Assembly: GCA_044892525.1 (NCBI GenBank)
Contig: CM097885.1
Coordinates: forward strand, 35,466,001 to 35,530,000
DNA from: Schmidtea polychroa
Lineage: Eukaryota
Reading direction: 5' to 3'
Length of the DNA stretch: 64,000 nt
Part shown: positions 9,624 through 61,234 of the stretch, piece by piece
Position numbering within the stretch: position 1 is the first letter of the stretch
Layout: each line of letters starts with the position of its first letter
Program-made: the position numbers and the translations under genes
Notes under the pieces: generated by a model
What the model was told of the DNA's origin: nothing
The model's database searches: none
The model's input: the letters and a program-made list of their open reading frames with translations, nothing else

Positions 9624-9700
9624 GCACCAACAATGGCATTAGTATTTTTAGCAAGTTTAAAAAAGAAAATTGCTTCTTTTCAATATGAAAAACCAATTGT
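9624..9700 (+). mobile_element. 5' piece of a Penelope-like retroelement RT, interrupted by the Maverick
   Basis: Reads APTMALVFLASLKKKIASFQYEKPI-V and continues in frame at 28486 as YKRYVDDIF once the Maverick and one TSD copy are removed. Confidence 0.85.
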
Positions 9701-10569
9701 AGTAGATGGATTGGGCACCGCTGGCACAGGGCACCGCTAGCACAGTACCCCCCCTCCCCCCCGGTCGTAAAATTTTAAAAAAATTCTAAGTCTAAAAGTA
9801 CATTTTTTTCAAGGTCAAATTTAAACAAAGACATATGACTCATCAAAGTCATTGAAACAAAGACCATGACTCATCCTATGACTCATCAAATTTCTCAAGG
9901 TCATTTAAACAAAGACCATGACTCATCCTGTGACTCATCAAGGTCACTTTCAAGGTCATATGACTCATAATATGACTCATCAAGACCAAAAAAATTTTCA
10001 AGGTCATTTAAACAAAGTCCATGACTCATCAAGATCATTTTCAAAGTCGTATGACTCATACTGTGACTCATCAAGGTCATTCTCAAGGTCATATGACTCA
10101 TCCAAGGTCATTTTCAAGGTCATATGAGTCATTCAAGGTCATTCTCAAGGTCATATGACTCATACTATGACTCGTCAAATTTTTTCAAGGTCATATGACT
10201 CATACTATGACTCACCAAAAAATTTTCAAGGTCATATGACTCATACTATGACTCATCAAAAAGTTCCAAGGTCATTTTCAAGGTCATCTGAGTCACCCTA
10301 TGACGCATCAAGGTAATTTTCAAGGTCGCATGACTCATCCAAGGTCATTCTCAAGGTCATATGAGTCATCGCGATGAGTCATCAAGGTCATATTATTATT
10401 TTTAAAAAATATTATTATTTTTATTATTATTTTTAAAAAATATTATTATTTTTAATTTTTCAAAGTTCCCGTCAACGAAAACTAATAATCGATCTCTCAT
10501 TTTAAAGCTCAATCCAAGGCCTTTCGAATGAGCCATATATCCTGTTATTAAGATTATTATTTCTAAAGA

Positions 10570-10660
<91 letters not shown>

Positions 10661-10830
10661 CTATATACATCGAGTCTATATACTCCGAGTCTATCCGACA
10701 AAATATTTTGTCCCCCTATGGGTAATGCTCACAAGGGTACTGGTCACGCTCAACAAATCAACAAATCAACAAAACATACATTTATTTAAACAATAAAATA
10801 ATGTAAAATTAACAAAGGTAAACTAAATAT
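9701..10830 (+). repeat. Left terminal inverted repeat of element A
   Basis: Reverse complement of 27248-28479; pairing stops at 10830/27248. Contains a TGACTCA/TCAAGGTCA array and an (ATT)n tract. Confidence 0.95.
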
Positions 10831-11458
10831 ATATAGTATGATATTCATTAATCAGTGTTGAACAGGCTTGACACTTGCGAACATTCTTCTCGTGACACTT
10901 AGAACAAACAATTACATGACCACATGGTAAATACAAAACCGAAACTCGATTTCCTTTACAAATTGAACAAGTTAAATACCTTTTCTTAACATCGTTCAGT
11001 TTTTTCGTTAGCTTATTTTCAATCAAATCGGTTTTTGCTATCCAATCATAAATCAATCTACTATATCCCGGTTTCAACCTTAAATACATACAACTCCAAA
11101 AGTATTCATTCAGTGAATCGTTGTTTACTGCTATTTTTTCTAAGTACATTAAATAACAAGATAACTTTAAAATGGATTTCTCATAATTAAATAAATCAAA
11201 CAAATATTCAATAGAGGAATGTTTGAAAATTTTTAAAATATTTATGATTTGCTTATCACTGTAAGTATCATGATTATTTAAAAATCTTCAACTGTGTTGT
11301 TAAAAAATTTCAATGAAATTTCAGAATAGGTTGAACTTAATTTTTCCTTATTTCTAGTAGGACTTCCTTGCTATAAATGGTATATATAAAAAATATTGAC
11401 AAAATAATAAAGTTACCAAATGTGTTACACATTCATCAGTTTTATTTGTAGAAATCAT
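10823..11458 (-). CDS. RING-finger (C3HC4, IAP/MDM2-type) protein, two exons, frameshifted in this copy
   Basis: C-terminal CSICKGNRVSVLYLPCGHVIVCSKC...KCQAC. Inferred exon 1 is 11458-11417 (MISTNKTDECVTHL), then a 46-nt GT-AG intron (11416-11371). A 1-nt loss in the T-run at ~11280 breaks the frame. The stop codon lies inside the TIR. Confidence 0.75.
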
Positions 11459-11577
11459 TAGTAATAAATTTCTTAATAACTAAATTACTTTTGTTTTTAC
11501 ATTTATAAAAATTGTGATAGCCAATCAAAATATAGCTTTCAAAATGTAGAAATTGTAACCATCAAAGCTGTTTAAAG

Positions 11578-11655
<78 letters not shown>

Positions 11656-11768
11656 GTCATTGATATAGCTGCATGCTCACTGCAGACTATATAAAATCAA
11701 CATTAAATACTTATAAAATTATATGAAAACAACAAAATAATGAAAAATCTGGTTACAAATTTTAATTA

Positions 11769-11778
11769 ATATATATAT

Positions 11779-11873
<95 letters not shown>
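11769..11873. repeat. (TA)n microsatellite
   Basis: Direct inspection. Confidence 0.95.
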
Positions 11874-11875
<2 letters not shown>

Positions 11876-12011
11876 AATTTTTAATAAATACAATTTTTAT
11901 ACAATTTTTATACAATTTTTATACAATTTTTATAAATCACGAAATCACTATATAAATACAAGTTTTTATAAATCAAAATATAAAGTTTTTTTTCTTTTCA
12001 ATTTGTTCTAT

Positions 12012-15000
12012 TTAAATTTGATCTTCGTCCCATTCGCTGTCGTCAAAACTGGGACTTGGAGCTGGACCGAATTCCTCATCATATTCGCTTAATTCGTCAA
12101 CTCCTAAATAGTGGCCAAATGCGTAACTTTTGTTTTTTCCTAGCCACGCGCGCTTATCATCATTATTACTTAGGGCAATTTTTGAATTTTTGAAAGTAAA
12201 AAGTTGGTGATTTCTAGTACCTATTCTAGTCTGCGGTACAGAAATCACCTGATTTGAATGAAAGCAATTTAAATATGATTCATGATTTATTGATGTCCCT
12301 GGTAATTTAACCCCCTTCGCTTTTACCGTTTCCTTACTACCTAAAAGACTATAACATTTAGGGCGTAAGAAAACCCATTCAGAATAACCTAATCCCTTGC
12401 TCTAATCTTTAAACTTCCCGATGACAGAGTCAAGGTTCCTATTATACAAGGGGTGTGTTGGATCGTAATTTGACGTATCCAATAAATTATCAGAGATCAT
12501 CTGAGGTAATAGAGTTGATAATTTTAAATTTTTTATTTCCAAAAAGAAACTGTCGGTATCACCGGCAATAATATTTATAATACATTTATATTGTCGACTG
12601 TACTTCTCCAAATCAATATATTGGAGCTGGTACATCCGCAGTTTAGACAGATCTAGTACTGTTTGACCGATGTAGCTAGGTCTGTCTAAACAAATCGAAT
12701 CTTTTTCCAAATGTGCCGCAATCAGATCGTCATCGATTCTTATAGACTTTCTGAAAGTCGGCTTTGAGGAGTATACTATCATCTTTTCGGATGAATTACA
12801 CAACCTCAAATTCATTCGTTTTTTCAGATTTTCAACGGATTTACCGTACAGACTGTTATTATACAATTTAAACAAGTCCCTATATATCTCGCTAGTAGAC
12901 TGAGATCGTAAAGTGGTGTTGGTGTCTATGTAGGATTTAAAGATAGGTCCTTGTTTAAACTTTATACATCTATGAATATTTACAACAACCGCACCTAATT
13001 CTATATACAATTTGAGAAGCCTCCAATGAAGAACATAGTTCCTCTTTGGCCAATGCGTAAGCATAAGCTTCTCAACTTTTGAATTAGGCGGGCACAACTT
13101 TTCCGGCGCAAGCGGAAAATGATTCAAAAAGTCATGCACACATTCCGGAATATCGATATCGACCTCCATAGTATACCCATATGGAAGGTTATCAATATCC
13201 GTGTTCATACATTCAAGTAAAACATCATTCAAGTTATTATTCACCCAAGAAAAATCACCATACGGAAGATTTTGGCTAAGAGCCCAACCATACAGATTAT
13301 TTATATCAATGTACAATAATTCTGTATCATCTGAAGTAGCCGTGTAATGTTTGTTAACAAATGTTAACCCACCCCGGATACCTCCCTCATAGAAATTATA
13401 CATTTCCATGTCCTGCAAAAGTACTATGGGTTCCGTTAATGTCATAAGCGCTGAGGCCCATGACATACCGGGAATCCCATAGAAATTAAGAGGATCCAGA
13501 CCATTGTAAGCAATTGCCTTACCGCGGAATTGCTGAAAATAGTCTGCGAGGAGGTATACGTCCAAGTTTAGGTAGATTAACATATAATCTAACAAATTAT
13601 TACAGTTATGCTGACTCCAAATTAGTTGAGCCTCAGCGTACTGATCTTCCGTAACATCAGACCAAATAGGAGGTAATTCTAAAGTCGATTCAAGAACATC
13701 CAAAGAAGTAGCGAAATTATATGGAAAGATACCTTTAGAGTGAATCATCGACCCTTGAAAGACAGACGAAGTTAACGGAAAAGTAGTAAGTGTTTTCACA
13801 GCTTTTGCTAAAGAACAATTAACAAATTGCATGCTGTCAATAAAACGAACAGGCAATTTGTTAATATATGCAATTAAAGATAGAAATTTTTCTGTAGAGG
13901 TAGGTATAATATTAAGTTCCCAAAAGGGAAAATCACTGAGACCATGTTTTAAAATATGGTGGAGGTCATAGCCTCGTAAATTATGAAAGACAACAGGTAA
14001 CAACTTATTAATCCTGCGAGAGACATTGCATTTCCTACATGCCGCTCCGACATATCTACCTGTAAAATGGCAATGATCTCTCACAGGATTAATAATAGAT
14101 TTTTTACACAAGTAACAAATAGTGGTAGATCGAAAGGCACGCTCCTGAGCAAAAGACAAAGTAGACATACCTTTATGACCTTCAAGTTCATAATATGGCA
14201 GGACAATTGTGACAGCAATTTCCTCCACTTTCCTCAAAAAATCCAAAATACAATTAGGTCCAAAAAAATAATAATAAAATTTAGTGTTTGTATAATTATT
14301 AATTAATAAAAGACCTGCTGATATGGGTAAATGTATTTGATGATATGTTTCATGTTCTGGTAAAACCGATTCAAAATCGGCATAAATTACGAAGGGAGGT
14401 GTAACGGTTTTTGCGTAATCTGTGAATAATAAATCCTTATTTTTAGGAAGTGTATACAAGGTTGTGCCAGTCTGATTTTTACAGCATAGAGCAACATGCT
14501 GATCGAAAGCATTCTTATATCTAAAGCCATTTAAACAATGTGGGCACCAGTTACACCTTATTTGAACGTTAACATTTTCATTTAAATGACAATTCATTAA
14601 TTTGTCCAAGTCTGTCACGGCCGTATAATGATATTTATCTTTATTACTCAAAAGTAATAAATAAATTGGCCTACCATCTATAACCTTGGAGCGATGTACA
14701 ATATTAAGATGAGGGTGGTGAGCTACATAATCCTCAGAAATATCACAATCAGAACTGGCTGGATTATAAGACAGAACGTTTATGCTTAAATTTAAATCTG
14801 GATTTTTCCTTTCAAATTTGGGGATGTTACATAGCCTCATCGGGCAATCTGTGTTTTCATCATAATTTAATAGATGTAAATATTCATAATATTTGGCGGC
14901 TCTTTGATGATTACGACCTATTTCTTCTCTTTTTAAAAGTGCAAGAATGCTATACAAGAAACACTTATGGTCGTTGTTTTTAACATTAATTATTGCGTGT

Positions 15001-16081
15001 TTTAATTTTAATGCAGATGGGGTTTTTATATAACTATGTCCGGATAATCTACTAACGGGTGCGTATTTCGTTAAAATAAAATCTATCTCTAAAATATTCA
15101 TTACTCGCCACCCGCTTCCTAAATAAGTGAATTGCTCAATCTTTTAATTTAATTTGCTCACCCCCTCGTTTATAAAGTTTGATGTAAAAACTTGCGCATT
15201 GTTAGAAAAATAATTATCCCGGATCTCCCCATCTTTTTCAAATTTAATTAAAATTGTAAATTGAATTTTTACATTGCCCATCTTTTCTATTTCCTCTATT
15301 AATCTTTCTTCAATTTTTGATGTTAGGGCTATTTTTACTAAGTTTTGATTTCTTATGTCAAATTTTAATGTTCTTCGTGATCCGTTCAAATCGGATTCTA
15401 CCATAGGTTCAAACAAAGAGCCGCCTATTTGACATATGTTGAAAGACGTTGAAGCTACACATTCATCATTGATGACTATCACTTCTTGTTGTGTAGAGGG
15501 TGCTTGTTGTGTAAAGGGTGCTTGCTGTGTGAACGATGTTGAAGCTACACATTCATCTTTGCTGATGACTATCACTTCAGGTCGCAATAATTTATTAGGA
15601 ATATAATTTTTAATTAAACCAGCAGGTCTTTTAATAGAATCTTTTTTAATAATAATAGGATCTTTTTTAATAATAATAGGATCTTTTTTAATAATAATAG
15701 GATCTTTTTTAATAATAGTATCTTTTTTAATAGTATCTGTTTTTTCTTTTATAATATTTTTTTTAATATTTTTTTTAATATTTTTAATAACATCTTTTTT
15801 AATAATATTTTTTTGTAAATTTTTTTGTAAATTTTTTTGTAATTTTTTTTTATTTTTATTTATTTTTTTAAATAAAACATTTTTTGAAATCGAAAATTAC
15901 CCTAAGTGACTATGATGTTTATTAAAAAATGTCATATATTTTATTTTTTCGCTAGTCACGCATTTGGGGCATATAAAAAAGTTGACTGAATTAAACTTTT
16001 TTCGGTAATATTTTTTCATAGTATGATGACATTGTTCATTGTGGCCAATTGAGGATTGGCAATAATTTGGGTATAGTCTAC
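12012..16081 (-). pseudogene. polB: Protein-primed family B DNA polymerase with endonuclease VII-like Zn domain; two premature stops
   Basis: Exonuclease YADFES and FHNLRGYD; polymerase YIDINNLYG, KLYNNSLYGK, GDTDS; CYLC..RDHCH..G.Y.GAAC..CN. ORFs 15144-15587, 12402-15101 and 12012-12248 are one frame broken by TAA (15144-6) and TAG (12402-4) where element C has Glu. A Cys/His N-terminal exon starts after an AG acceptor at 16082. Confidence 0.95.
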
Positions 16082-16139
16082 CTGTTAAATAAAAAATTAA
16101 AGTTTTATTCTTTTTCTATATTGAAAACTAATTGTTACA

Positions 16140-16213
16140 TCTATAAGGATTTATCATCATTTGTTATTTAATTCAAATGAACTATATAACAAATGATGAT
16201 AAATCCTTATAGA
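16140..16213. repeat. Perfect 28-bp inverted repeat with 18-nt loop
   Basis: TCTATAAGGATTTATCATCATTTGTTAT (16140-16167) and its exact reverse complement (16186-16213). Confidence 0.9.
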
Positions 16214-16321
16214 AAATAGGTTAATATATTCGAGAGAATATTAGAGAGATTTTAGTATATGGGTCAGATTATTATTATATGAATATGTTAAATATTAGAG
16301 AGACTATAGTAGACGAGTCAG

Positions 16322-16443
<122 letters not shown>

Positions 16444-16448
16444 GAGAA

Positions 16449-16671
16449 GTAGCTGCATGCTCACTGCAGACTACTATATAGCTACATGCTTACTGTAGAC
16501 TATAGTAGAAGGGTCAGATTATATTATTATTTATATTATTATCATTATTATTTATATTATTATTATTATTATTTATATTAATGAGAAGTAGCTGCATGCT
16601 CACTGCAGACTACTATGTAGCTACATGCTTACTGTAGACTACTATGTAGCTACATGCTTACTGTAGACTAC
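16449..16671. repeat. Five copies of a 26-bp imperfect palindrome (GTAGCTGCATGCTCACTGCAGACTAC type)
   Basis: Units start at 16449, 16478, 16588, 16617 and 16646. Further copies at 11665-11690 and, diverged, at 61103-61128. Confidence 0.85.
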
Positions 16672-16678
16672 ATTATTA

Positions 16679-16754
<76 letters not shown>

Positions 16755-17297
16755 TTAACTATTGAGGATGCACATTGCAAACTACAAGGATTTTATAACT
16801 ATAATTTCGTAATAACTTTTTAAAATATTTTCATAATAATTTCAAAAACGTAGTATTTACTTCATATAATCATTTTCATCATAAATCATTTTCTTCATAA
16901 TTTTCGTCATAAGTTTCATCATAATTTTGGTCATAAATCATTTTCATTTTCTTCATAAATTTTCGTCATTATTTCATAATAAATCATTTTCATCATAATT
17001 TCATAATAAATCATTTTCATCATAATTTTGGTCATAAATCATAAATCATTTTCATCATAAATTTTCTTCATATTTTCATCATAATCATTTTCTTCATAAA
17101 TCATTTTTTCATCATAATTTTTTTGGCATATTTTCATCATAAAATCATTTTCTTCAAGAGTTTCATTATAATTTTTATCCAAATATTTAAAAAATTTTTA
17201 TCAAAATGTTTTTATGAAAATATTTTAAAAAGTTATTACGAAATTTTAAATATATGTAAAAAAAAATATATATATATAAAAAATAAATAATTCTTAC

Positions 17298-17933
17298 ATT
17301 GGGATTCCATGTCGGAATCATCCTCAGACAGGATATTACCAATTTCATCATCATCTTCAGAGAGGGCATAGATATTATTACCAATTTCATCTTCATCATC
17401 ATCTTCAGAGAGGACATTGACATTATTACCAATTTCATCTTCAGAGAGGACATTGACATTATTACCAATTTCATCTTCAGAGAGGACATTGACATTATTA
17501 TTATTAATTTCATCATCAGAGAGGGTATTGACATTATTATTATTAATTTCATCTGCATCAATGTCAACATTGAAAACTGGGGCAATTGAAACATTTCCTA
17601 AAATGAAAAAAAATTAATTTAATAAAAATTAAAATTATAAATTTACCAAAGATCTTATTAGGAGCATCAGTTTGCCCAAGAAAAACGACATCATCGTCGT
17701 CGCTATTTAAAACCTTTTCTAAAATGCAAAAATTAATTTAATAAAAATTAAAATTATAAATTTACCAAAGATATTTTCCACATTTAAAATCGAATCGTCT
17801 TCGGTAACCTCATACCAGTCGAATGGTTCTAAAAGAATAAAATAAAATATAATAAAATAGAATAAAATAAATTACCATTCGTCAAAAGACTTCTCAAAAC
17901 GCGATTGTTAATAGGTAAATTGTTATTTTGCAT
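17298..17933 (-). CDS. Four-exon acidic (Asp/Glu/Asn-rich) coding region, probable 5' leader of polB
   Basis: Exons 17933-17876, 17828-17766, 17718-17647 and 17597-17298 join through GT-AG introns of 47, 47 and 49 nt, all phase 1, into one open frame (MQNNNLPINNRVLRSLL...SEDDSDMESQ). A GTAAG donor follows at 17297. Confidence 0.75.
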
Positions 17934-18279
17934 TTTAGTTAGTTAAAGTGATTTTTGAAAAATTTAGAAAAATTGTGACAAATTTTAGATTTGTCGATGT
18001 TTATAAAGAGAATGAATATTTTCCTGTCCCAGCCAATGAGAATATAGACACACACACATATACACTGAATATTTTACTCACTCAACCAATCACACGCATG
18101 CATGCATGTAATGTAAATCACTCGGAATTACATGTGACTGCCTTTGTTAGTCATGCCTTTGTAAACTTGCACTGTGCATGCCTCACTCAAAGGTAGTCTT
18201 TATGTTACAAATAATAATATTTATTAGAATAATAATAAAATTAATTAAAAATAATAATATTTTTCACAATAATAATAAT

Positions 18280-18346
<67 letters not shown>

Positions 18347-18430
18347 TTAATAATAATAATATTAATAACAATCACAACAACAAAGGAAAGGATACATTTA
18401 TTAAACATCAAATTTATTAAACATTTTTCT

Positions 18431-18842
18431 TTAAACATCAAATTTTTTGTACAATAACCAAGCTAAACAATGTTGACCGCATGTTTGGGTCAATGGATTT
18501 TGAAACATAGTTTTATTATACACAATAAGTTTCCCCATTGTTTGTAGTTTTGATATCAAGAAAGCCGGGTAATAAAAACCCATAGGATCGAACACGAATA
18601 TATTACCAGGTTTGACATATATAGCTATCCAATGTTCTCCACCAAGATGAGACGATTGAGTATTGACGATTATTGCTTGATTATTGCTCAAATATGGAAT
18701 TTTATCTAGAGGAAAAACTCCAACAAATTCATTTCCCAATATCTGTTTTCCGATTTTATTGACCTGAACAGAACTACTTAAATAAATCCAGAGTATAAAA
18801 AACAACTTACTCCATGATAACTTTTTGTGTTTCAATATACAT
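18431..18842 (-). CDS. Adenain-like cysteine (maturation) protease, with a short 5' intron
   Basis: GVFPLD..IVNT....GEHWIA...FDPMG...Q......CGQHC. The likely start is ATG 18842 or 18815, followed by a GTAAGT intron 18810-18774 (tandem AAG/TAG acceptors), giving MDSVQVNKIG. Confidence 0.9.
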
Positions 18843-20057
18843 TTATACCAACACTGTTCTATTTGCAGTAATTTGAACTTCATTTTCAAATACTCCATAT
18901 ATTATAACATGTACTGGTTCAGTAATAGCTTTTGCAAACTTTATATCCAGTCGTAAATTTCCATTTTGAGGTAATTGACTTTGATTTAAATCAAAATCAG
19001 GGGCTAAAACAAATGTAAAAAATGGGTATTTGCTTTTAAAATCTTCTAGAGTTATTCCACAATTCAAATTTTTATCTAAATAACCCAGATTTCTAACAAT
19101 ACTCTGCATATATGTCGCACAGAAATTGTCATTCTCGAAATCTTGAATATATGTTTCTCTATAATCAGTATTTTTCGACAAAGTCAATGAAGTAACATTA
19201 AAGTTTTTGAAAATTGAGCTGGACGCAGTATATGATCCATTATATTGTGCTTCACTTTGAAATGTTATCAGAATAAAATTAGGCATTCTTCTGTCACCAA
19301 ATATTTGTTCTTTATAGAATGATGAAGCACCTTTAGCAATAGCAAATTGTACAATTTCCTTTGTTTTTAATGGATAAATTGCATGTTTTGAATTAAGACC
19401 CAATTGATGACCTGCTAATACTACTCGTACTCTTCTCACCAATAATTTTGCATCAACTAATTGACATATTGGTGCACCTGTAGCACTAGTAAGAGTTAGT
19501 GCAGAATCGGATCTTTTCAATCGAATGTGGACATTAACTCCTGGAAGCAAATATTTCGGTTGATCCATAAAATCGAGTTGTAACGATGAACACTTGGTGA
19601 ATGTTTTTGAGCCTTTAATCCACTTTTTTCTTTCATCGTCGGTTGCAGCATATCCCATTGGAGTAAGACATGTATTTTTAGTATCGGAATTGTAATTTAA
19701 AATAGTTTCTATCAAAGCCTTGTGAATGAATGTATTATTACCACCTTCAATCTTGATATTATTAAATCCCAACACAGCATCTTTAAAAAGAGTATGAAAC
19801 ATGAAATTGTTCGGTATTGCATCAGCAGCATCACCCAAAGCTTTTTTATCTTTATCTATAACCTTGATCTGAACAGTCAATAAAGTATCGTTTAAATCTA
19901 AATATTCAGTTTGCGAACCATTAAAATAAAACTCTATATCATTTCTACTATCAGTAATTGAATTCATTGGAAAAACTTCCTCAAACGCCCCAAATTCTAT
20001 TACAGCCTGGGGCGACGGTCTATCAAATATACATAATTCAGATTTACCACAAATCAT
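18843..20057 (-). CDS. Major capsid protein (double jelly-roll; hexon/PY-like)
   Basis: 404 aa. N-terminal KSELCIF..P.PQ..I, IEF..G....YLDLNDTLL, DFMDQPKYLLPGV.V.I.LKRS and a C-terminal GNLRLDIKF, typical of Polinton/adintovirus MCPs. Lies next to the protease. Confidence 0.85.
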   Translation of the reverse strand: MICGKSELCIFDRPSPQAVIEFGAFEEVFPMNSITDSRNDIEFYFNGSQTEYLDLNDTLLTVQIKVIDKDKKALGDAADAIPNNFMFHTLFKDAVLGFNNIKIEGGNNTFIHKALIETILNYNSDTKNTCLTPMGYAATDDERKKWIKGSKTFTKCSSLQLDFMDQPKYLLPGVNVHIRLKRSDSALTLTSATGAPICQLVDAKLLVRRVRVVLAGHQLGLNSKHAIYPLKTKEIVQFAIAKGASSFYKEQIFGDRRMPNFILITFQSEAQYNGSYTASSSIFKNFNVTSLTLSKNTDYRETYIQDFENDNFCATYMQSIVRNLGYLDKNLNCGITLEDFKSKYPFFTFVLAPDFDLNQSQLPQNGNLRLDIKFAKAITEPVHVIIYGVFENEVQITANRTVLV

Positions 20058-20422
20058 TTTGCAAATATAGTTCCATGGCCTTTCATTCGTTTGTTTATAC
20101 GTGATATTCCATGTCTTTTACGTTTTGGAGCATGAGCTGGAGCTGGAGGTTTTTCTTTTTGAAACATACCTGCAACCCCGGGTAAAACTTTCCCTAATTC
20201 TGCTAAAGCATTTGATTTTAGAGATGGTAATATTTTCTGTTCATTCATAATAACATCTTTAGCAGTTTTCATACCAAAACTACCAATACGTTTAAGAATA
20301 GGAAGTGCAAATCTACCAATTGTTCTCAACCATTCTGATCCGTACTGTTTACCAATAAAATATGGTAATTCACCGCCAGATTGGCTACCACTATACATAC
20401 TTATAATATCCGAATTAGCCAT
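20054..20422 (-). CDS. Putative virion core/membrane-active protein
   Basis: 122 aa with QSGG and QYG motifs (possible protease sites), an amphipathic WLRTIGRFALPILKRIG segment and a basic C-terminus. Sits between the minor and major capsid genes. Confidence 0.6.
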   Translation of the reverse strand: MANSDIISMYSGSQSGGELPYFIGKQYGSEWLRTIGRFALPILKRIGSFGMKTAKDVIMNEQKILPSLKSNALAELGKVLPGVAGMFQKEKPPAPAHAPKRKRHGISRINKRMKGHGTIFAK

Positions 20423-21415
20423 CTACTTTACGAAAATGTAATGTTAAATGAGTTTTTGAATCTTTTGGAAATGCGATTAATTTACCAGAATCATCACGTA
20501 TATTTATTTCTATATTGTTTATACATGAGGTTGACACAGGTAAATACATGGGATTATCGATATTTATATTGACTACTTCATCATGTTCATATTTTTCAAT
20601 CCAAACAGATTTCAGGAGTGGGACCAAAGAATCGCCAACAATTACAGGATCAACAATATTACTATAGATGAACATTTGTTGGTGAAGTTTAATTATTTTC
20701 GGAGCTAGGGTACCTTGATCATCTTGAGCATATGTTGCTTTTGATAATCCTAATGTTTTTATTAGATTTGCATCAAAAGTAATTTCAGTAAATTCGGGAT
20801 TCAAACTGAATTTGAATCTGTCTGATATTTCCAATGATTTAAATAAACCACTTTGTTTTAAATATGTCTGTAATTCATCCAATTTCGAAATGTATAAATT
20901 ATCTTTGAACTCAAATGTACCAGACGTTATACCCGGATATGAAACTGTAAATAAAATTGGTTCAAATCGCTGTACAGTTTTGGAATATCCCGGTCGTAGC
21001 ACAGTGAATTTATCGGAAAGAACTTTATGACTTTGGGTTTTTAATTCCAATCGTTTTGCCATTTCCAAACTATCAAATTTTACAGTAAAAGGATAATGTT
21101 TACATTCAACTACTATATATGGATGGTTAATATACATTTTCACAGCTGGATCAGTTGAATTAGACAACCGAACTTCATCATCTGCATTATCAATGATCAT
21201 AGACAATAATCTATCCTGCCACTCATTCTTTTTGTATCCAATTTTAGCCTTACTATAAAATGGAAAGGCTTGGTATACAAATGTAAAATCCAACAGAGCA
21301 ACTTCCCAGCTATTATCCAAATATATCGGATTTTGAAGATTGACCCTGAATATGCTGGCTTTATTATCTGGATGAATAAGTGGACAGCTATTGCTAGGTA
21401 AAATAATATAAAAAT

Positions 21416-21419
<4 letters not shown>
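20415..21419 (-). CDS. Minor capsid protein (penton/PX-like)
   Basis: Starts MNFYIILPSNSC...N....F.V.L..PI.L...WEVAL and ends FIYSNIVDP..VGD...PLL...Y.PV....I..IEINIRD..G..I.F......LHFR, the Polinton minor capsid pattern. Confidence 0.85.
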
Positions 21420-22537
<1,118 letters not shown>

Positions 22538-22598
22538 TACAACAAGAAGATTTAAAATTAAATTTAATGTCGGGCAATGAAGGATTAGCACCCATTGT

Positions 22599-22871
22599 TT
22601 ATGATTGATTTCCTACAACTCCACCTAATAATGATAATGCCAGAGGTATCAATGCACCAATAAATCCACCTTGTTGTTTATATATAATTTTCCTCATTTG
22701 CTTACGATTTTTATTATTTACTAAAGATAACAATGGTTTCCTATGTTTGCTCAATAAATGCTTTTTTGATTTACTGATTTTAATTTTACCTTTGACTACT
22801 TTAAGTATAATATTGAGTAAATCATCGACAACAAAATTTGGGAATGATTGCAATATATTCATTCTTTTCAT
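22599..22871 (-). CDS. Small basic virion protein with a GG^F cleavage site and C-terminal amphipathic helix
   Basis: ...KQQGGFIGALIPLALSLLGG, a motif typical of a conserved small Polinton/adintovirus protein. Confidence 0.7.
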   Translation of the reverse strand: MKRMNILQSFPNFVVDDLLNIILKVVKGKIKISKSKKHLLSKHRKPLLSLVNNKNRKQMRKIIYKQQGGFIGALIPLALSLLGGVVGNQS

Positions 22872-23131
22872 ACTCGGGCCTTTAACAATGCATTAAAAAA
22901 TGGAAAACTGCGATGATTTTTAACTACTTTTTTACCGGTTTTACGAGTTTTACGGGTTTTACGTTTAGGTTTAGGATTTTTCGAAATAAGATTCATTGCA
23001 GAGAAATTTTCAGTTACAAGTTTTTTAGACGGTGTATAACTAGTTGTTGGTGGAACTTTTGGAACTTTAATACTCTTTCTAATACTTTTTCTTAATTTCC
23101 TAATATTTTTCACCCTTGCTTTTAGAAACAT
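22868..23131 (-). CDS. Highly basic 87-aa protein, possible DNA-condensing core protein
   Basis: Lys/Arg-rich (PKPKRKTRKTRKTGKK). ATGA overlap with the next gene. Confidence 0.55.
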   Translation of the reverse strand: MFLKARVKNIRKLRKSIRKSIKVPKVPPTTSYTPSKKLVTENFSAMNLISKNPKPKRKTRKTRKTGKKVVKNHRSFPFFNALLKARV

Positions 23132-23149
23132 TATTATTCATAGAGGTTT

Positions 23150-23776
23150 TCAACTTTGTTTATAAACCATGGCACCTTTTGGGTTGAAAATATCTGTTTT
23201 TACTCGTAAATCATCGGGACATTGTTGTGTGAAATCAAGAAATATATATCCATGAGGTATTTTTGTTGCATCTTGAAATGCACTGATAAGAAAATTACGA
23301 TTGTTAGGGTATGCTTGACGTGCAAGAAAATCAATCACTGTTGCATCTCTAGGATTCTTGAAAATAACTAAATATTGTACATTTAAATTACGTGTTCGAT
23401 GTGCCCCACCTTGATGAAATAGATTTTGTGTTATGAAAATAACTGTTACACCGACATGTCTGCTGATCTTTGTAAATAAATTATTAAAATCTTTTTCTTT
23501 ATTAGCTTCTTGATACAAATCATCGATAATAATGACATCACCTTTCTTTAATCGGCTGGACCAGTTTTTATCGAATCCCTTTACAATTTTCATGTTTTTT
23601 AATTTACAAAAACTTGATTGAGTTAATCCATGTTCTTCATCAGCACCCCTATGCCAATAAATCCTGTTGAATTTTGATTTGAATAAATTTGATTTTAGTA
23701 ATTTACAAACAAATAATGTTTTTCCACTACCACTCGGACCAACGATTTGGTATACTGCATCATTTCTTAATTCCAT
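23150..23776 (-). CDS. A32/FtsK-like DNA packaging ATPase
   Basis: Walker A GPSGSGKT, Walker B IIIDD, SRH...TVIFITQNLF, and FKNPRD motifs. Confidence 0.95.
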   Translation of the reverse strand: MELRNDAVYQIVGPSGSGKTLFVCKLLKSNLFKSKFNRIYWHRGADEEHGLTQSSFCKLKNMKIVKGFDKNWSSRLKKGDVIIIDDLYQEANKEKDFNNLFTKISRHVGVTVIFITQNLFHQGGAHRTRNLNVQYLVIFKNPRDATVIDFLARQAYPNNRNFLISAFQDATKIPHGYIFLDFTQQCPDDLRVKTDIFNPKGAMVYKQS

Positions 23777-23874
23777 TTCAAAATTTTATATATGTGTATT
23801 TGTTTATATTCGATGATTTAATGAACTCGTGCTCAATTTGTATATAAAGACTAATTTTCATAAATGATTTAATA

Positions 23875-24279
23875 ATGTTAGCAAATATAAATTATCGAGG
23901 AAATTTTGATGTATCGAATATGAGGTTCCCACCAGGGAAACCCCAGCAAATTATCGATAGAAGCGGGAAATATCCGATAATATTTTTCAAGACTGGTAAA
24001 TGCAGAATCATGGGATGTAAGAAACCTTTGGATATTAATAAATTACAATATCGAATAAATAATATTATAATCCAATCAATTACCGTTACTATGGATATGG
24101 GACATAGTATCAATCTATATAACATGTCGAAAAAATGTGATTGTATGTTTGAACCGGAATTGTTATGTGTCAACGTGTTTGCTAGTGGAAAGGTTGTCAT
24201 GTTGGGGTTGAGAAATTTGGAGTATAGAGAATTTGTTGAGAAGGTTCGAAATGAGATAATTTCATTGGTCGATTTCTAA
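23875..24279 (+). CDS. Miniature TATA-binding-protein (TBP)-like protein
   Basis: Two TBP-type repeats: NINYRG...IIFFKTGKCRIMGCK and IQSITVTMDMG..INL......FEPEL..VNVFASGKVVMLGLR. Compare TBP YEPELFPGL and IFVSGKVVLTGAK. Confidence 0.75.
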   Translation: MLANINYRGNFDVSNMRFPPGKPQQIIDRSGKYPIIFFKTGKCRIMGCKKPLDINKLQYRINNIIIQSITVTMDMGHSINLYNMSKKCDCMFEPELLCVNVFASGKVVMLGLRNLEYREFVEKVRNEIISLVDF

Positions 24280-24356
24280 TTGGTTAATTTCTAATTGGTT
24301 ATTGATTGATTTAAACAAACGGTTTTTTGTTTAGGATTCATTTATTCAACAACAAC

Positions 24357-24774
24357 ATGTACAAAATTCCGAGCGCCGCGAATCTCATGAAGGATATTGA
24401 TGATTATGGTAAATTTAAAATTTTTATTTTCACATTTTTTTAAATTTATTATTTTAGAAAAATATTTAGAAATAATGATAAATAGGATAAAATATTATTA
24501 TCCGCAAATTGCTGAAGTAATCAAAGATCGGGAACCAGAAATCATACCAGATTTGATTTTTTATGCCACGCAAATTAGAATAATGGAGGTCTTTCATCAA
24601 TTTTTATGGGATGTTAAGATCAACAGAACAATGAAGCAAATGGAGCCGGAGTACCAATGCATCATCGGATGCTCATGCTGTGCCGATCGATATCGGCGAT
24701 ATGTCGAATGGGAGTTAGTGAAAACTCTGAGAAGGTTTCACTACTCCCGGATTGTAGATTTAGGTTACCAATAA
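24357..24774 (+). CDS. Two-exon hypothetical protein with a Cys cluster (CIIGCSCC)
   Basis: ATG at 24357 (MYKIPSAANLMKDIDDY). A 49-nt GT-AG intron (24409-24457) joins in frame to EKYLEIMINR. AATAAA overlaps the stop. Confidence 0.65.
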
Positions 24775-24860
24775 ATGTATTTTTTATTGTGTTTTATCTT
24801 TTTTATATTTGAAATAATAATAGTAATAATAATAATAATAATAGAAATAGTAATAATAAA

Positions 24861-24923
<63 letters not shown>

Positions 24924-25165
24924 GAAATAATAAAACATTAATAATAAAACATTAATAATAATAATAATAATAGAAATAATAAAACATTAATAATAATAAA
25001 ACATTAATAATAAAACATTAATAAAAATAATAGAACATGTGACAATGCAACATCAATGCATTTTGAATGCAATTTAAACAAAGACATGCTATAATCTGAT
25101 TGGTTGATAGGCATGAGTCAAAGGTATAAAAACCCTGTAACATTTAAATTTATTCATTATTCACG

Positions 25166-25576
25166 ATGACCAAGAAAATTTCAAGCACCGAAAAACCTAA
25201 AGAAATGGTACAACCAGTTCAAATGTTCCACAACTACAAAATGTATTTTTTGAAAGAAGAAATCAATATGAAATTGGTTGCACCAGTCAAGCTAATTCCA
25301 ACTAAATTTGAATTCTTATCCGGCACGCTTTCAATGATTGATGTCAAAACTATTGATGATGTTTTTAAACGGATAGATTCGAATCTATCGTGTAATCAAC
25401 ATGCGTGGTTCAACAATAGATATGCAAGATTTTATGATGCTTTTGATGAAATCAGTTTCAAAGAAAATGAAAATTGGTATATAACAATTGCAATCCAGGG
25501 ATATAAAGTTGATAATAATGATGTATATTCTCCTATTTGGAAAATTATGTCTGCTAGACTTTCACAAATATTTTAA
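25166..25576 (+). CDS. Hypothetical 136-aa protein, possibly an OB-fold ssDNA-binding protein
   Basis: Clean ORF with an upstream CCAAT box and TATA box and a downstream AATAAA. The C-terminal ITIAIQGYKV....YSPIWKI pattern recalls T7 gp2.5-like viral SSBs; the function is an inference. Confidence 0.5.
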   Translation: MTKKISSTEKPKEMVQPVQMFHNYKMYFLKEEINMKLVAPVKLIPTKFEFLSGTLSMIDVKTIDDVFKRIDSNLSCNQHAWFNNRYARFYDAFDEISFKENENWYITIAIQGYKVDNNDVYSPIWKIMSARLSQIF

Positions 25577-25703
25577 TGTTATATTTAATAAATGTATTAG
25601 TCAGATTTGTTTTTTTTCTTTATTAATTGCAACATAAATGCAAATGACATGCAAATTTAACAAAGAAAATCTATAAACAAACTTATAATATAGTTTTAAA
25701 GTG

Positions 25704-26101
25704 ATGAAAATGACTGCAGAAAAAGGTTAACATGATTAATTAATTACCGAATTATTTATTATTTAGAATTTTTAATCAACTTTTTGTTGGAAGAGTTAGC
25801 AGAAATATCTGGTGTGAAAATTGAGGACATATTATCTATTACAAATGCCTTTAATATCGGCTGGTTAGTTGAGAGTCAAGATACAGGATTTGATGATGAG
25901 GAAGAAACTCAAGAAATTGATGAGGAAGAAACTCAAGAGGAAATCTATGAACCTATAGATGAACCTATAGAGGAACCTATAGAGGAACCTATAGAGGAAC
26001 CTAAAGATGAATCTAAAGATAATATTACGAATGATTGTATTGATCATGTCGTTGAAAATATAATGAAATGTGGAGATGAAGACTGCGAATGTGTTAATTA
26101 A
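25704..26101 (+). CDS. Two-exon acidic protein with EEPI repeats
   Basis: MKMTAEK, then a 41-nt GT-AG intron (25726-25766), then EFLINFLLEELAE...; ends CGDEDCECVN. Confidence 0.65.
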
Positions 26102-26178
26102 TAAATCTTAGTTAATTAGTGTTTGTAAATTTATTTAAAATTTTATTTAAAAATCAAACAAAATAACTATATTAATTT

Positions 26179-26686
26179 TTATTTAAAAAACCGACATAAA
26201 ACATACAAAATAGCAACACCTGTTGCAAGTTTTAAATAGTTTTTAAATTTGATTTTCTGTTGATCTATTTCCTTGGCATTTCTGGCGAGTTGATTCAGCA
26301 CGCCCCATCCGCCATTGGCTTCAATCCATGGCTGAAACTTTGACTTGATTATCTAGAAAATAAATATTAATAAAATATAGATTATAAAAGTATTACTTCT
26401 TGAGACCACTGATAATAATGTCCCATAGACTTCTTTCCATTATGATCTTCATATAAGCGAACCCTACTAGTATTCGGGTCCACTTCATCTCCTCGTCGCA
26501 TAAGCAGTTAAAAATCCTATTAAAATAGAATTTCTTCGTTTCAAGGGAATCGGAATTGAGCACGTCCTCATAATCAATGTGATTACCTTCTATAATCTTT
26601 TCGGTCCGATCGACCAGGAAACTTAGGCTTTCCATAATATTCTTGTTGACGAGTTCTCTTAAAAGATTTTCCATAAAATGAGACAT
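26179..26686 (-). CDS. Bcl-2 family protein (BH1, BH2, C-terminal membrane anchor), two exons, one frameshift
   Basis: Exon 1 carries BH1-like MKWTRILVGFAY. A 44-nt GT-AG intron spans 26396-26353. Exon 2 (26352-26179) reads IIKSKFQPWIEANGGWGVL...LATGVAILYVLCRFFK*. A 1-nt loss near 26440 must be corrected to join them. Confidence 0.85.
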
Positions 26687-26791
26687 TTTTACAATAATTT
26701 AAAATATGATGTTTTATTTATACTAATACTGTATGATTTTGATTGGTTGATAGACTATAAATGTAAGAGAAAGGTTTTGATTTGATACACC

Positions 26792-27292
26792 ATGAAAACT
26801 ATATTCATATTGCTAATTATTATAACGAGTGTGTGCTCACACAATACAACAATAACAGTGGAGTCTTTTAATAAATCAATATGTGTTTGTCCGAATACAG
26901 CCAAGTTGATGGATATTTTATATATTCTCGATAAACCAAAATGGTCAAAGCATCCAGGAAAAAGAATATCTCAAAGATTGGAGAATTTAGAAAACAGTTA
27001 TGAACTAACATTTGAATATATACAAAATATAAAAATTAAATTGATTGATCATATTGAGGTTTTCAATAACTCTATTGCTGAAAATAAAAAGAATATGAAA
27101 ATTATTGATAAGAAGCATGATTATTTGTTAAAAAAGATTGAATTATTATTAAGAGAAATTCAAACAATCAAAGGATCAATAGAATATCTGAAAATCAATT
27201 CATCGTTACCAATTTCTAACAATATTGCTGCGAATAGTAGTACATCAATATTTAGTTTACCTTTGTTAATTTTACATTATTTTATTGTTTAA
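26792..27292 (+). CDS. Secreted coiled-coil protein with a probable GPI-anchor signal
   Basis: Signal peptide MKTIFILLIIITSVCS, several N-x-S/T sequons, a heptad-like central region, and a small-residue site followed by a hydrophobic tail with no cytoplasmic part (NSSTSIFSLPLLILHYFIV*). Confidence 0.7.
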   Translation: MKTIFILLIIITSVCSHNTTITVESFNKSICVCPNTAKLMDILYILDKPKWSKHPGKRISQRLENLENSYELTFEYIQNIKIKLIDHIEVFNNSIAENKKNMKIIDKKHDYLLKKIELLLREIQTIKGSIEYLKINSSLPISNNIAANSSTSIFSLPLLILHYFIV

Positions 27293-27433
27293 ATAAATGT
27301 ATGTTTTGTTGATTTGTTGATTTGTTGAGCGTGACCAGTACCCTTGTGAGCATTACCCATAGGGGGACAAAATATTTTGTCGGATAGACTCGGAGTATAT
27401 AGACTCGGTGTATATAGATTAATAATAATAATG

Positions 27434-27505
<72 letters not shown>

Positions 27506-28479
27506 TCTTTAGAAATAATAATATTTTTTAAAAATAATAATAAAAATAATAATATTTTTTAGAAATAATAATATGACCTTGATGACTCATCGCGATGACT
27601 CATATGACCTTGAGAATGCCCTTGGATGAGTCATGCGACCTTGAAAATTACCTTGATGATTCAAAGTTTGACTCAGATGACCTTGAAAATGACCTTGAAA
27701 CTTTTTGATGAGTCATAGTATGAGTCATATGACCTTGAAAAATTTTTGATGAGTCATAGTATGAGCCATATGACTTTGGGAAAATTTGATGAGTCATAGC
27801 ATGAATCATATGACCTTGAGAATGACCTTGAATGAGTCATATGACCTTGAAAATGACCTTGGATGAGTCATATGACCTTGAGAATGACCATGAATGAGTC
27901 ATATGACCCTGAGAATGACCTTGAACGAGTCATATGACCTTGAGAATGAGTCATGGTCTTTGTTTAAATGACCTTGAAAATTTTTATGACTCAACGGATG
28001 AGTCATATGACCTTGAGAATGACCTTGAATGAGTCATGGTCTTTGTTTAAATGACCTTGAAAATTTTTATGACTCATCGGATGAGTCATATGACATTGAA
28101 AATGACCTCGATGAGTCACAGTATGAGTCATACGACCTTGAAAATGACCTTGATGAGTCATGGTCTTTGTTTAAAATGACCTTGAAAATTTTTTGGCCTT
28201 GATGAGTCATATTATGAGTCATATGATCTTGAAAGTGACCTTGATGAGTCACAGTATGAGTCATGGTCTTTGTTTAAATGACCTTGAGAAATTTGATGAG
28301 TCATAGGATGAGTCATGGTCTTTGTTTCAATGACCTTGATGAGTCATATGTCTTTGTTTAAATTTGACATTGAAAAAAAATGTACTTTTAGACTTAGAAT
28401 TTTTTAAAAATTTTACGACCGGGGGAGGGGGGTACTGTGCTAGCGGTGCCCTGTGCCAGCGGTGCCCAATCCATCTACT
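27248..28479 (-). repeat. Right terminal inverted repeat of element A
   Basis: Reverse complement of 9701-10830, with a longer repeat array and lacking the ~110-bp module at ~10448-10557. Confidence 0.95.
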
Positions 28480-29760
28480 AATTGTGTACAAAAGGTATGT
28501 TGATGATATTTTTCTAATATTTAAAAATAAGTAACACGTGAAACCTTTTCTGCATTACATGAATGGATTGCATAAGAACATTAAATTCACATATGAAATT
28601 GCGAAGGATTCATCCATAGCATTTCTTTACTTGTTAATTAAACGTAAAGATGAACAATATGAGACAGAAATTTACAGAAAACCAACAGATACCGGCCTCT
28701 ATACTACCCCAGAGAGTTTTTGTGAATTTAAATATAAAATAAACATGGTGAAAGGATTGGTTTATCGATCATGGTGCTTATCTTCCACTTTTAAAAATTC
28801 AGTAAAAAGTGTAGATAAATTAGTTGAATTACTGATGAAGAATGGCTACTCAAAACGGTTTTATTGTTAACGTTGAAAGAGACTTTTGATAAATGTATGA
28901 ATAATGCTAAGGATCGTAGTATGAATGAATGTAAATTTACTGATATGAATGATGTAGTGAATATGAGTATTGATACTAACAAGATGAGCCAAAATATACG
29001 ATGGTATTGCCGTATTCTGAAGGATATAAAGATTTCAAAAGACAGATTGTTAAACAGTTGGGTACATTGAATTATAGAATTGTTTCAAAATCATGCAAAG
29101 TACGTAGTATGTTTGTTAATAAATTTCAAACGCCGGTTGGATTGTATTCGGATCTCGTTTATCAATTCACATGTAATGGGTGTAATGCCATATACATTGG
29201 AGAGACTTCCCGTCATCTCTGCACTCAAGTTCAAGAACACTGTCGACCGAAAGGAGTGTCCAATATTGAGGATAACAATAAAGTCTGTATGAGAGAATTA
29301 GGAATTTCGGATTTTAAAATCTTATCAAAAAAATTTGATAGTTGTTTTGAGTGTGTTATACGTGAAGCATTATTGATAAGAACATTTAATCCTAAAATCA
29401 ATGTGCAGAATGCAGTGAATACTTGTGTGTTGAATGTTTTTAATTAAATTTTTGTATGTTGATGTATAATGAATAATAGTTATGTTAAATAATTAAAAAA
29501 ATAATAAAAATAATATTTGTTTAAAAAATTTTTAAAAGTGAAAAATAATTGTTTGTTGAAAATTATTTTTGAAAATAATTATTTAAAATTGTTATTTATA
29601 ATTTAAAAATTTATAGATTTAATAATTTGTTTATAAATTATTAATATTGTATAGTTATTCATCCCTCGTGAATGTAGGTAACCTGATGATGATAGTGATG
29701 CTATCGAAATATATAGTGAAAAAGATGTACGAATGGCGATTTTTATTAATAAAGTCTTTA
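28480..29760 (+). mobile_element. Penelope-like retroelement 3' part (RT C-terminus plus GIY-YIG endonuclease), degraded
   Basis: YKRYVDDIF, LHKNIKFTYE, IYRKPTDTGLY, KNGY; then VLPY and LVYQFTCNGCNAIYIGETSRHL....EH, REALLI....PKINVQ. Contains stops and frameshifts; the 3' boundary is approximate. Confidence 0.92.
29681..29717 (+). ncRNA. Minimal type I hammerhead ribozyme motif in the Penelope 3' region
   Basis: AC-CTGATGA-T-GATAG-TGATG-CTATC-GAAA-TATA-TA^GT: intact core, 5-bp stem II and palindromic stem III. Stem I has only 2 bp. Confidence 0.7.
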
Positions 29761-49703: not shown

Positions 49704-50280
49704 TCATAATAGACTGAAGGTATCTGTTCCGCTAACTTTAGTCATTGATTGGTAGTAATACACTGGCGGTACATTTATTTTATCTATGCTACTTTCTTTA
49801 TTCCCATTTTCATTATCTGAACTTGAATCATCGTTTATGCTGTTATTTCTTAGTCGATATTTTACTTTTCCCATTTCCTTATATTGATGAATAGTAATTA
49901 AAAACCGTTCTAGAAATGGTATGCACCCAATAATCAGTTTACACAACCCCTCAGAATTATTATATAATTGGTGAGTAGTAAGTATTTGGGATATTATAAC
50001 TTTAATCATGACCACGATAACATATATTCCAATAAGACCTATATTCCCCATGAATTTTTTTTCACCACATATATTTTTCATAGTACTATATGTTACTAAT
50101 TTACTATGATCTGGTGTTAATAAATAGTTGTAATTTATTTTTCCTTGGCTACTTGGCAATATAGTATCAACATGAAGTCCCATTGGCTTCTTTCCGAAAT
50201 TGATCTCATTATTTTCACATCATTTATTCTTTGACTACGCAACAATGCATGGATGATGTACGTATTAGGATAGATATTTT
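49704..50280 (-). pseudogene. Possible C-terminal (transmembrane) remnant of a chuvirus/gB-like viral glycoprotein
   Basis: YLLTPD...KNICGEKKFMGNIGLIGIYVIVVMIKVIISQI...L......KLIIGCIPFLERFLI has the two-hydrophobic-segment pattern of chuvirus-type glycoprotein tails. Recognised by eye only. Confidence 0.4.
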
Positions 50281-59700: not shown

Positions 59701-60349
59701 AAATACTATATATAAAGCACATATCGTCAGTGTTTTTGACGTTTACTATTGCTTTTTTAGAATTTAAAGCCGCTGGGGTGGGGATATAACTATGTCCAGC
59801 TAATCTATTTATACATTTATATTTATTTATTATAAAATCTATCTCTTTGATTTTAACCACTCGCCATCCGCTACCCAAATATGTGAATTTTTCTATTTTC
59901 TCATTTAACTTAGTGATACCCTTTACTAGAAAATTATATGAAAAAACTTCGGCGTTATTGGAGAAAAAATTATCCTTTAATTCGCCATCTTTCTCAAATT
60001 GGATTAAAACGGTGAATTGTATTTTAACTGTACCCATACCGTTTATTTCGGTAATTAATTTATTTGTCATCTTATTTGTAATGAAAACTTGTACCAAGTT
60101 ATCTTTTTCCATATTAAATCGTAAATTCTTTCTAGCCCCCTTAAAATCTATCTCAATTTCAGGTTCATCGTCAATATCGATCAAACCACCTATTTGATTA
60201 TATATTGAATCACCAGTTGTATTAATTTTAACAATTTTAGAGGGAACACCAGACCCAAAACTAACAGCAGGCTGTTTATTATTATTTAGAATATTATTTA
60301 TTTTATTATTTAGATTCGTATTTAGATTAGTATTATTTACATTATTATT
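56711..60349 (-). pseudogene. polB: Protein-primed PolB of element C, left arm; 5'-truncated, with premature stops
   Basis: ORFs 58820-60184 and 56816-58741 are one frame broken by TGA in RDH*H. An in-frame acidic tail continues past the TAA at 56816 to a TGA at 56711. Confidence 0.92.
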
Positions 60350-60409
60350 AAGTAAATTTTATTAAGTAAATTTATTTTTAAAATTTAATTGAAATTAAAA
60401 ATTGTTTAG

Positions 60410-60670
60410 TTGATGAAACAATTAATGATGGTGAAAATGTTATTGAGGACAATACCCGAGATATTATCATGGAATCAACGGGTAAATTTATTTTATTTAA
60501 TTAATGAATTACAAAAACTTTAGGTAATGATACCTCGAATGTTGAATATGCCCCAAATATTAATGATGTTTCTGATGAATATGCCCTCACATCAATTGAG
60601 GAGGAAATTAATCATGCCTCCGTTTCTTATGGGGATGAATCTGAGGATGATTCCGATATAGAATCAAAAT
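60410..60670 (+). CDS. Two acidic exons homologous to the element A leader
   Basis: Exons 60410-60481 and 60524-60670 with a 42-nt GT-AG intron, phase 1. They end SEDDSDIESK followed by a GTTAGT donor (element A: SEDDSDMESQ plus GTAAG). Confidence 0.7.
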
Positions 60671-61151
60671 GTTAGTTATATTTTATTATTATTTTTTAAA
60701 TTAATTTAAAATTGTGTTTGATAATTAATTTGTTTAATAACCACATATAAATTATGAAAATGTTGAAAATGATGAAAATATTCCTGAAATTATTATGAAA
60801 ATGTTGAAAATTGTGAGAATGTTCCAGAAACTTCTGAAAAATGCTGAAAATTATGAAAATGTTCCTGAATTTATTATGAAAATGTTGAAAATTATGAAAA
60901 ATATGAAAATGTTTCTGAAAATAATTATGAAAATCATGAAATGTTCCTGAAAATTATGAAAATCTTTCTGAAGATAATTATGAAAAATCTGAAATTTATG
61001 ACAAATATGAATATGTTCCTGAAAATGATGTTGAAATTAATAAGTTGTTATGAAAATAATTATTGAATAGAAATAATACTTTGAAAATATTAATTGTCAA
61101 ACATAGTTTGCATTGAGCACGCAACTACTCTCTTTTATAATAATATTTAAA

Positions 61152-61234
<83 letters not shown>

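Follow-up and report, generated by a model that had tools for sequence, protein, structure and literature searches.

A miniature TBP and a variant TATA box in a Maverick/Polinton family: a candidate element-encoded late-gene system

The described systems closest to the one reported here are the TBP mimics of beta- and gammaherpesviruses (KSHV ORF24, EBV BcRF1, and HCMV UL87), which the available portions of PMC12529657 associate with a TATT late box. According to the same portions, KSHV ORF24 is a 752-aa protein that binds Pol II directly, belongs to a six-protein complex, and has four Phe but not the TFIIB acids. Cellular TBP inserts its Phe pairs into the box at steps 1-2 and 7-8 (available text of PMC1935006). 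Its contacts for TFIIA, TAF1, Mot1, and Brf1 lie in the basic H2 patch; in most viral TBPs the acids for TFIIB binding are variable, and a TFIIB of viral origin accompanies them (both from the accessible part of PMC7221094). For Polinton-related elements, "TBP" appears as a legend abbreviation in the non-animal section of MELD/adintovirus maps (Starrett et al. 2021, PMC8502044; bioRxiv 10.1101/697771). That label and the protein described below both concern a TBP-like gene of Polinton-related elements, possibly but not necessarily of one family; the accessible portions of PMC8502044 contain no TBP analysis or promoter, and its text supplement has no mention of either. The TBP mention in the available part of PMC10675990 concerns mirusvirus-like elements, TBP and TATA are absent from the main text of PMC10748475 and PMC8097293, the word polinton is absent from PMC7221094, and among the matches listed in searches of the open full-text literature (as distinct from subscription journals), neither a Polinton TBP nor the YATAAACR motif is analyzed.

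The gene in question is part of an 18,779-bp Maverick/Polinton (9701-28479) within a 64,000-nucleotide stretch of Schmidtea polychroa DNA, hereafter the window. In line with the criteria for terminal inverted repeats (TIRs) and target-site duplications in the available part of PMC8097293, the element has long TIRs (left, 9701-10830, + strand, with a 5'-AGTAG end; right, 27248-28479, - strand), AGT-type ends, and a 6-bp target-site duplication (9695-9700 and 28480-28485). Its gene content is equally typical, with pPolB (12402-15101, -, homologous to 56816-58582, which itself matches DNA_pol_B_2 at E = 2.9e-20), an rve integrase with a chromodomain (21416-22537, -), an A32-like packaging ATPase (23150-23776, -, Pfam Pox_A32 E = 3.6e-07), and an adenovirus-type cysteine protease (18431-18898, -, Pfam Peptidase_C5 E = 5.5e-06). 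The double jelly-roll candidates are conserved ORFs of fitting size and order without a family match. They comprise a putative major capsid protein (18843-20057, -), assigned by position, size, and conservation with no Pfam match, and a putative penton (20415-21470, -), assigned by position and size with no informative family match, a label that follows Polinton gene order. Next to the TBP gene lies a conserved 136-aa neighbor (25166-25576, +), which is preceded by a canonical TATA box and an initiator-like word and has no match in Atlas. A family-level Pfam scan of the element ORFs, chiefly the larger ones, gave no match to a TFIIB-like gene or an RNA polymerase, and at 18.8 kb the element is too small to hold a polymerase gene.

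Several other features of the window deserve mention. A C3HC4 RING protein is encoded where the left TIR borders the interior of the element (10823-11149, -, Pfam E = 1.9e-09). Near the right end there are a 97-aa ORF with a weak, below-cut-off Bcl-2 match (26393-26686, -, E = 0.017) and a canonical TATA box upstream, and a 166-aa ORF (26792-27292, +) that looks like a membrane-anchored surface protein, with hydrophobic N and C termini and a coiled-coil-like middle. Broken ORFs with a weak GIY-YIG match (28559-29447, +) adjoin the right TIR on the outside and, as we infer, probably represent a Penelope-like element. A weak match to a Monjiviricetes fusion glycoprotein (49704-50183, -, E = 0.00023, below cut-off) lies near the inverted-repeat pair 43445-43790/48816-49161. 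Finally, at 56816-64000 and locus L112, two pPolB fragments of another Maverick family form a 2237-bp perfect inverted repeat with a 1414-bp spacer.

A first-pass annotation had described the mini-TBP gene (23875-24279, +) as a 134-aa ORF with two TBP repeats and FEPEL, smaller than the TBP core, and this description holds. The ORF contains IFFKTGKCRIMG, FEPEL, and VFASGKVVMLG, its Pfam TBP match passes the curated cut-off in two stretches (E = 6.5e-10), and an Atlas feature search returned TBP clusters for it. A canonical TATA box, TATATAAA (23841-23848, +), lies 34 nt upstream of the start and is a putative early, host-read promoter. The annotation had also suspected a deletion after FEPEL. 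That deletion is real, in frame, and 33 bases long (site 24162-24165, +), but it does not belong to the design of the family, since all 29 sister copies fetched encode 145 aa. A search of the 781-Mb assembly for the 25-mer across the junction, allowing up to one mismatch, finds it a single time, and the junction is shared by none of the homologues at E ≤ 0.001 (51 of them with both marker motifs; the lone flag was a pattern mismatch). A genome search that scored 150 of 4044 candidates gave a match of 402 nt for the window, as against 435 nt for the other matches listed, and contigs from three of four public runs, of presumed type, carry the longer TBP form; among 20 public runs listed, none with the gene is on record as RNA. 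The deletion is therefore damage private to the window copy, although an assembly error may be its source. It removes strand S2' and the equivalents of yeast TBP F190 and P191, so that the window-copy protein is probably nonfunctional; its predicted structure shows disorder at the site. The same copy is damaged elsewhere, a trinucleotide microsatellite interrupting its integrase.

The fold was assessed on an intact sister copy, P0057, which is naturally 145 aa long and still miniature. AlphaFold predicts a TBP saddle with a pLDDT of 95.8, and Foldseek against the PDB gave 44 matches at E ≤ 0.001, with TBP chains throughout the matches listed, at TM-scores of 0.67-0.77 and identities of 20-24%. 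In this model the C-lobe is complete, and the N-lobe keeps its strands but lacks any helix as long as four residues; its H2 segment counts 18 residues versus 31. What truly miniaturizes the protein, as modeled, is that its N-lobe has lost helices H1 and H2. Residues were counted on a 49-row alignment (A2) that is unfiltered on the scored positions and replaces a filtered one, in which the R and M columns were 100% by construction, and the yeast contact list is that of PMC12529657, Table 1. DNA-contact residues are kept at N69 (47/49), F116 (48/49), F190 and F207 (49/49 each), and P191 (41/49), as are the TFIIB acids E186 (47/49) and E188 (48/49). Six positions carry fixed changes: V71N, V122R, N159S, and V161T (48/49 each) and T124M and L205N (49/49 each). 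The F99 position holds Pro in 48/49 rows, in an inferred register that MAFFT places differently, neither placement putting a Phe there. The family appears to keep three of the four intercalating Phe, and the window copy also lacks F190. Since the DNA face is changed and yet near-invariant, this pattern argues for a new specificity rather than for loss.

How does this protein compare with known TBPs? With cellular TBP and TRF (PF00352; PDB 1ytb, 1cdw, and 1vol) it shares the two-lobed saddle, N69, F116, F190, F207, P191, and the EPELFP stirrup, and it differs in its 20-24% identity, the absence of H1 and H2 in the model, the six changed DNA-face positions, and the loss of the H2 basic patch for TFIIA, TAF1, Mot1, and Brf1. 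Among the hallmarks of a canonical TBP, then, the four Phe, the hydrophobic DNA face, and the N-lobe H2 patch are missing, and the TFIIB stirrup is present at the sequence level. Nucleocytoviricota and mirusvirus TBP-like proteins resemble it in having a viral TBP fold (BFVD matches) and a divergent N-lobe regulatory surface; unlike them, to which it is 7-20% identical, the mini-TBP keeps the TFIIB acids, and no TFIIB-like gene was seen among the scanned ORFs of its element. The likeness to the herpesvirus proteins, as far as the available portions of PMC12529657 describe them, includes a viral TBP fold, a polar DNA face in which V122, V161, and L205 turn polar in both, and a variant TATA box upstream of structural genes. 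The mini-TBP, in contrast, is a 145-aa stand-alone saddle with the TFIIB acids, three Phe, and YATAAACR instead of TATT, and neither herpesvirus-type partners nor extra Pol II- or DNA-binding domains were found in this single-domain protein or the scanned ORFs of the element. The Maverick system would work like the vTBP/TATT pair but falls outside that system, and its protein does not qualify as a canonical TBP either.

We found 55 mini-TBP homologues at E ≤ 0.001, and 60 clusters (50% identity) score E < 1e-30 for the family. Among 51 metagenome loci, 22 have a Polinton core gene, 9 more have the 136-aa neighbor alone, and 20, mostly short contigs, have neither. When genomic elements were picked by their capsid gene, 38/40 carried the TBP gene (35 beside the ATPase and 3 elsewhere in the element; the other two are broken stretches), and 30 of the 35 ORFs beside the ATPase are full length. 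The family is under purifying selection, with a dN/dS of 0.13-0.33 in the 9 of 496 pairs that have usable divergence, well away from the value near 1 that would have spoken against a working gene. Among 26 near-identical genomic copies, pN/pS is 0.5-0.7, which fits decay after insertion and not strong constraint; a within-family tally of 15 synonymous and 9 nonsynonymous changes was set aside as biased, the copies having been ranked by protein similarity. In a tree of 47 hand-picked rows, the short forms group (95/86) among longer relatives of 163-190 aa, separate from the TBP of the host and the paralogues of that protein. It is hardly credible, then, that the gene stems from a recent capture of host TBP and is a fragment decaying without a role. 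The damaged window copy and the 5/35 broken capsid-selected ORFs would suit such a fragment, but the 60 clusters, a dN/dS of about 0.2, and the separate position in the tree refute it for the family and leave it to the window copy alone. Judged by its sequences, the mini-TBP family is real, old, widespread, and conserved.

As for its origin, the hand-picked tree names no gene donor, profile scores do not discriminate between archaeal and eukaryotic TBP, and the EPELFP motif looks eukaryote-type. No relatives came up when viral contigs were scanned with the capsid protein, the ATPase, or the TBP alignment, a scan with the long-form TBP alignment gave only two giant-virus TBP-like genes, and a single weak 25-residue match from a prokaryotic genome scan was discarded. 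In the regions L082-L091, G000 C3:38.2-39.1 Mb, and C1:23.8-24.2 Mb, the host has several divergent TBP paralogues, two as single ORFs, and clustered TFIIB-like open frames of about 300 aa. Since the genomic loci L092-L107 and L117-L156 are often 87-100% identical to the window in the ATPase and about 85-100% in the capsid, and differ sharply in TBP (47-55%) and the putative penton (51-57%), module swapping by recombination among genomic Maverick families is suggested.

In the window copy a 98-bp gap separates the mini-TBP ORF from the ATPase head to head, as the first-pass annotation had pointed out, but this arrangement is not conserved: it recurs in 2/15 metagenome loci showing both genes, the position of the gene varies, and a conserved bidirectional promoter was rejected or down-weighted. 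That the gap is TATA-rich, also remarked on earlier, is uninformative by itself in an AT-rich window where TATAAAC is not enriched overall (21 versus 30 expected). The signal that stands out is positional and strand-specific rather than a bulk enrichment. On the - strand, TATAAACA lies upstream of the ATPase (23801-23808), in the ATPase tail upstream of an 87-aa basic ORF (23157-23164), upstream of a 75-aa ORF (22675-22682), in the putative penton tail upstream of a 122-aa ORF (20516-20523), and within that ORF, 42 nt upstream of the putative major capsid gene (20092-20099). The related CATAAACA lies 66 nt upstream of the integrase start (22596-22603, -) and GATAAACA in the integrase tail, upstream of the putative penton (21483-21490, -). 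Further TATAAACA boxes at 17998-18005 (-) and 25672-25679 (+) have no ORF of at least 50 aa close behind, nor do the extra boxes of a sister, and possibly serve small or spliced genes.

Counting ATAAAC up to 110 nt upstream of starts, with near-duplicates removed, we found it before 16/17 ATPase genes (1.7 expected by chance), with 15 of the 16 sites at 31-36 nt, and before 9/9 capsid genes, 6/6 122-aa ORFs, 8/9 pentons, 8/11 90-aa ORFs, and 6/10 integrases, as against 4/39 TBP genes (chance 2.7). The box is absent upstream of the 90-aa ORF and the protease in the element of the window, and it is likewise found ahead of genes without an obvious structural role, encoding an LRR and a C2H2 protein. 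De novo, TATAAAC and ATAAACA ranked as the top upstream 7-mers, ATAAACA occurring 52 times on the coding strand of seven modules and never on the opposite strand. Of the 69 nonredundant variant boxes found no farther than 70 nt from a start, 52 are placed 30-49 nt upstream; before virion-module genes the usual distance is 30-45 nt. Where the box falls inside coding tails, synonymous resampling indicates that it is kept at the DNA level in two reading frames (penton, 14/14 versus 2.8 expected; 122-aa ORF, 12/12 versus 4.9), gene bodies being near expectation. It is very improbable that this motif serves polyadenylation, another function at the RNA level, replication, or packaging and is unrelated to TBP. 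It does often sit toward the ends of genes and has ATAAA in common with AATAAA, but the base preceding ATAAAC is T in 43/58 cases and A in only 3, the box lies about 90 nt upstream of the penton stop, and it also occurs ahead of the block's first gene, with no codirectional gene farther upstream (the window, L044, and L064).

Canonical TATA boxes in the same loci serve many of the TBP genes, among others. An initiator-like TCAY follows at +24 to +35 in 23/32 canonical boxes and in only 6/58 variant boxes (2/32 and 2/58 in the control window), and because TCAY trails the former and rarely the latter, the elements hold two promoter classes, canonical TATA and variant box. A second Polinton family of the same genome (PF21738 capsid) served as a control. 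No TBP gene lies inside the 14 elements examined, three TBP matches being nearby and outside, and ATAAAC precedes 3/37 starts (4 elements), each time 9 nt from the ATG; the association of TBP with the box rests on this one TBP-less family and on related lineages, so that the counts are not independent. Most starts of this family (G000 L197, L189, L199, and L169/L170) consist of a T-run, a few bases, an A-rich AAA, and the ATG. Such T-run and A-rich starts resemble the late promoters of poxviruses and giant viruses, and by analogy the pattern hints at helper-virus dependence. No covariation of protein and box was seen, the longer TBP form in L077/L080 pairing with CATAAACA, nearly the same box.

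Could the host itself read the box? In the accessible parts of PMC4402545, cellular TBP disfavors C at TATA position 7, and it binds a C-containing TATA variant through a Hoogsteen pair that avoids a leucine clash (see also the title of PDB 1qn3). Because cellular TBP tolerates the C in this way, the host might read the box as a weak TATA. At the counterpart of yeast L114, presumably the clashing leucine, A2 still has I/V/L, so simple steric relief is not seen in the mini-TBP. We regard it as unlikely that the box is a weak TATA or a host-factor site (host TBP or Forkhead-type) and that the mini-TBP is a decoy soaking up TFIIB or damping host transcription; a dominant-negative decoy was one option in the first-pass annotation. 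The conserved TFIIB acids, the apparent loss of one intercalating Phe, and the Hoogsteen tolerance all agree with it, and ATAAACA fits the Forkhead consensus RYAAAYA. However, a fixed, polar, changed DNA face is unnecessary for a decoy, and the decoy loses ground because that face is conserved in its changed state rather than drifting; the GTAAAC variant expected of a Forkhead site is not enriched, the box is one-stranded and fixed in position, and it is missing from the TBP-less Polinton family.

We favor as the probable explanation, on sequence grounds, that the mini-TBP is an altered-specificity late-gene TBP of this Maverick family that works with host TFIIB and Pol II. Host TFIID would read the canonical TATA promoter, so that the mini-TBP is made early; it would then bind the YATAAACR box upstream of the particle-building genes. 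Its retained acidic stirrup would recruit host TFIIB, and Pol II would start about 30 nt downstream of the box. Loss of the N-lobe helix H2 may allow escape from TFIIA, TAF1, Mot1, and Brf1, and the variant promoters would be TFIID-independent. In a TBP-DNA complex the N-lobe covers the 3' half of the box, which matches the fact that the N-lobe is the lobe most remodeled here. The earlier suggestion of a late-gene activator is thereby supported to the extent that a candidate target box has been found, for which binding by the mini-TBP and late timing are predicted. A somewhat more remote alternative than the decoy is that the mini-TBP binds the box as a repressor or timer that keeps virion genes silent on integrated copies, or depends on another protein of the element, for instance the 136-aa neighbor. 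The evidence for binding is the same, the 136-aa gene adjoins the TBP gene in many loci, and the herpesvirus vTBP needs five partners (available portions of PMC12529657); against this, a box at TATA distance without an initiator, together with a retained TFIIB surface, suits activation, and no TFIIB-like Pfam match was found in the element ORFs scanned, which include part of the small ones.

Extending the favored late-gene reading, we suggest more tentatively a one-gene late system, in which a 145-aa TBP without the host-regulated lobe surface, retuned to YATAAACR, would plug into host TFIIB and Pol II and bypass TFIID, giving a helper-independent nuclear virus an early-to-late switch. The two Polinton classes of this one genome appear to follow different promoter logic. 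For the timing of Maverick/Polinton capsid genes and their need for a helper virus, the mini-TBP and its box name a testable factor and DNA site; the box marks expected virion transcript starts, so that active production of particles could be read from 5'-end data already at hand. As regards TBP itself, this natural minimal saddle shows which surfaces can be dropped or retuned. If the proposed mechanism is true, the family would offer a natural orthogonal TBP-promoter pair and evidence for an autonomous Maverick virus cycle.
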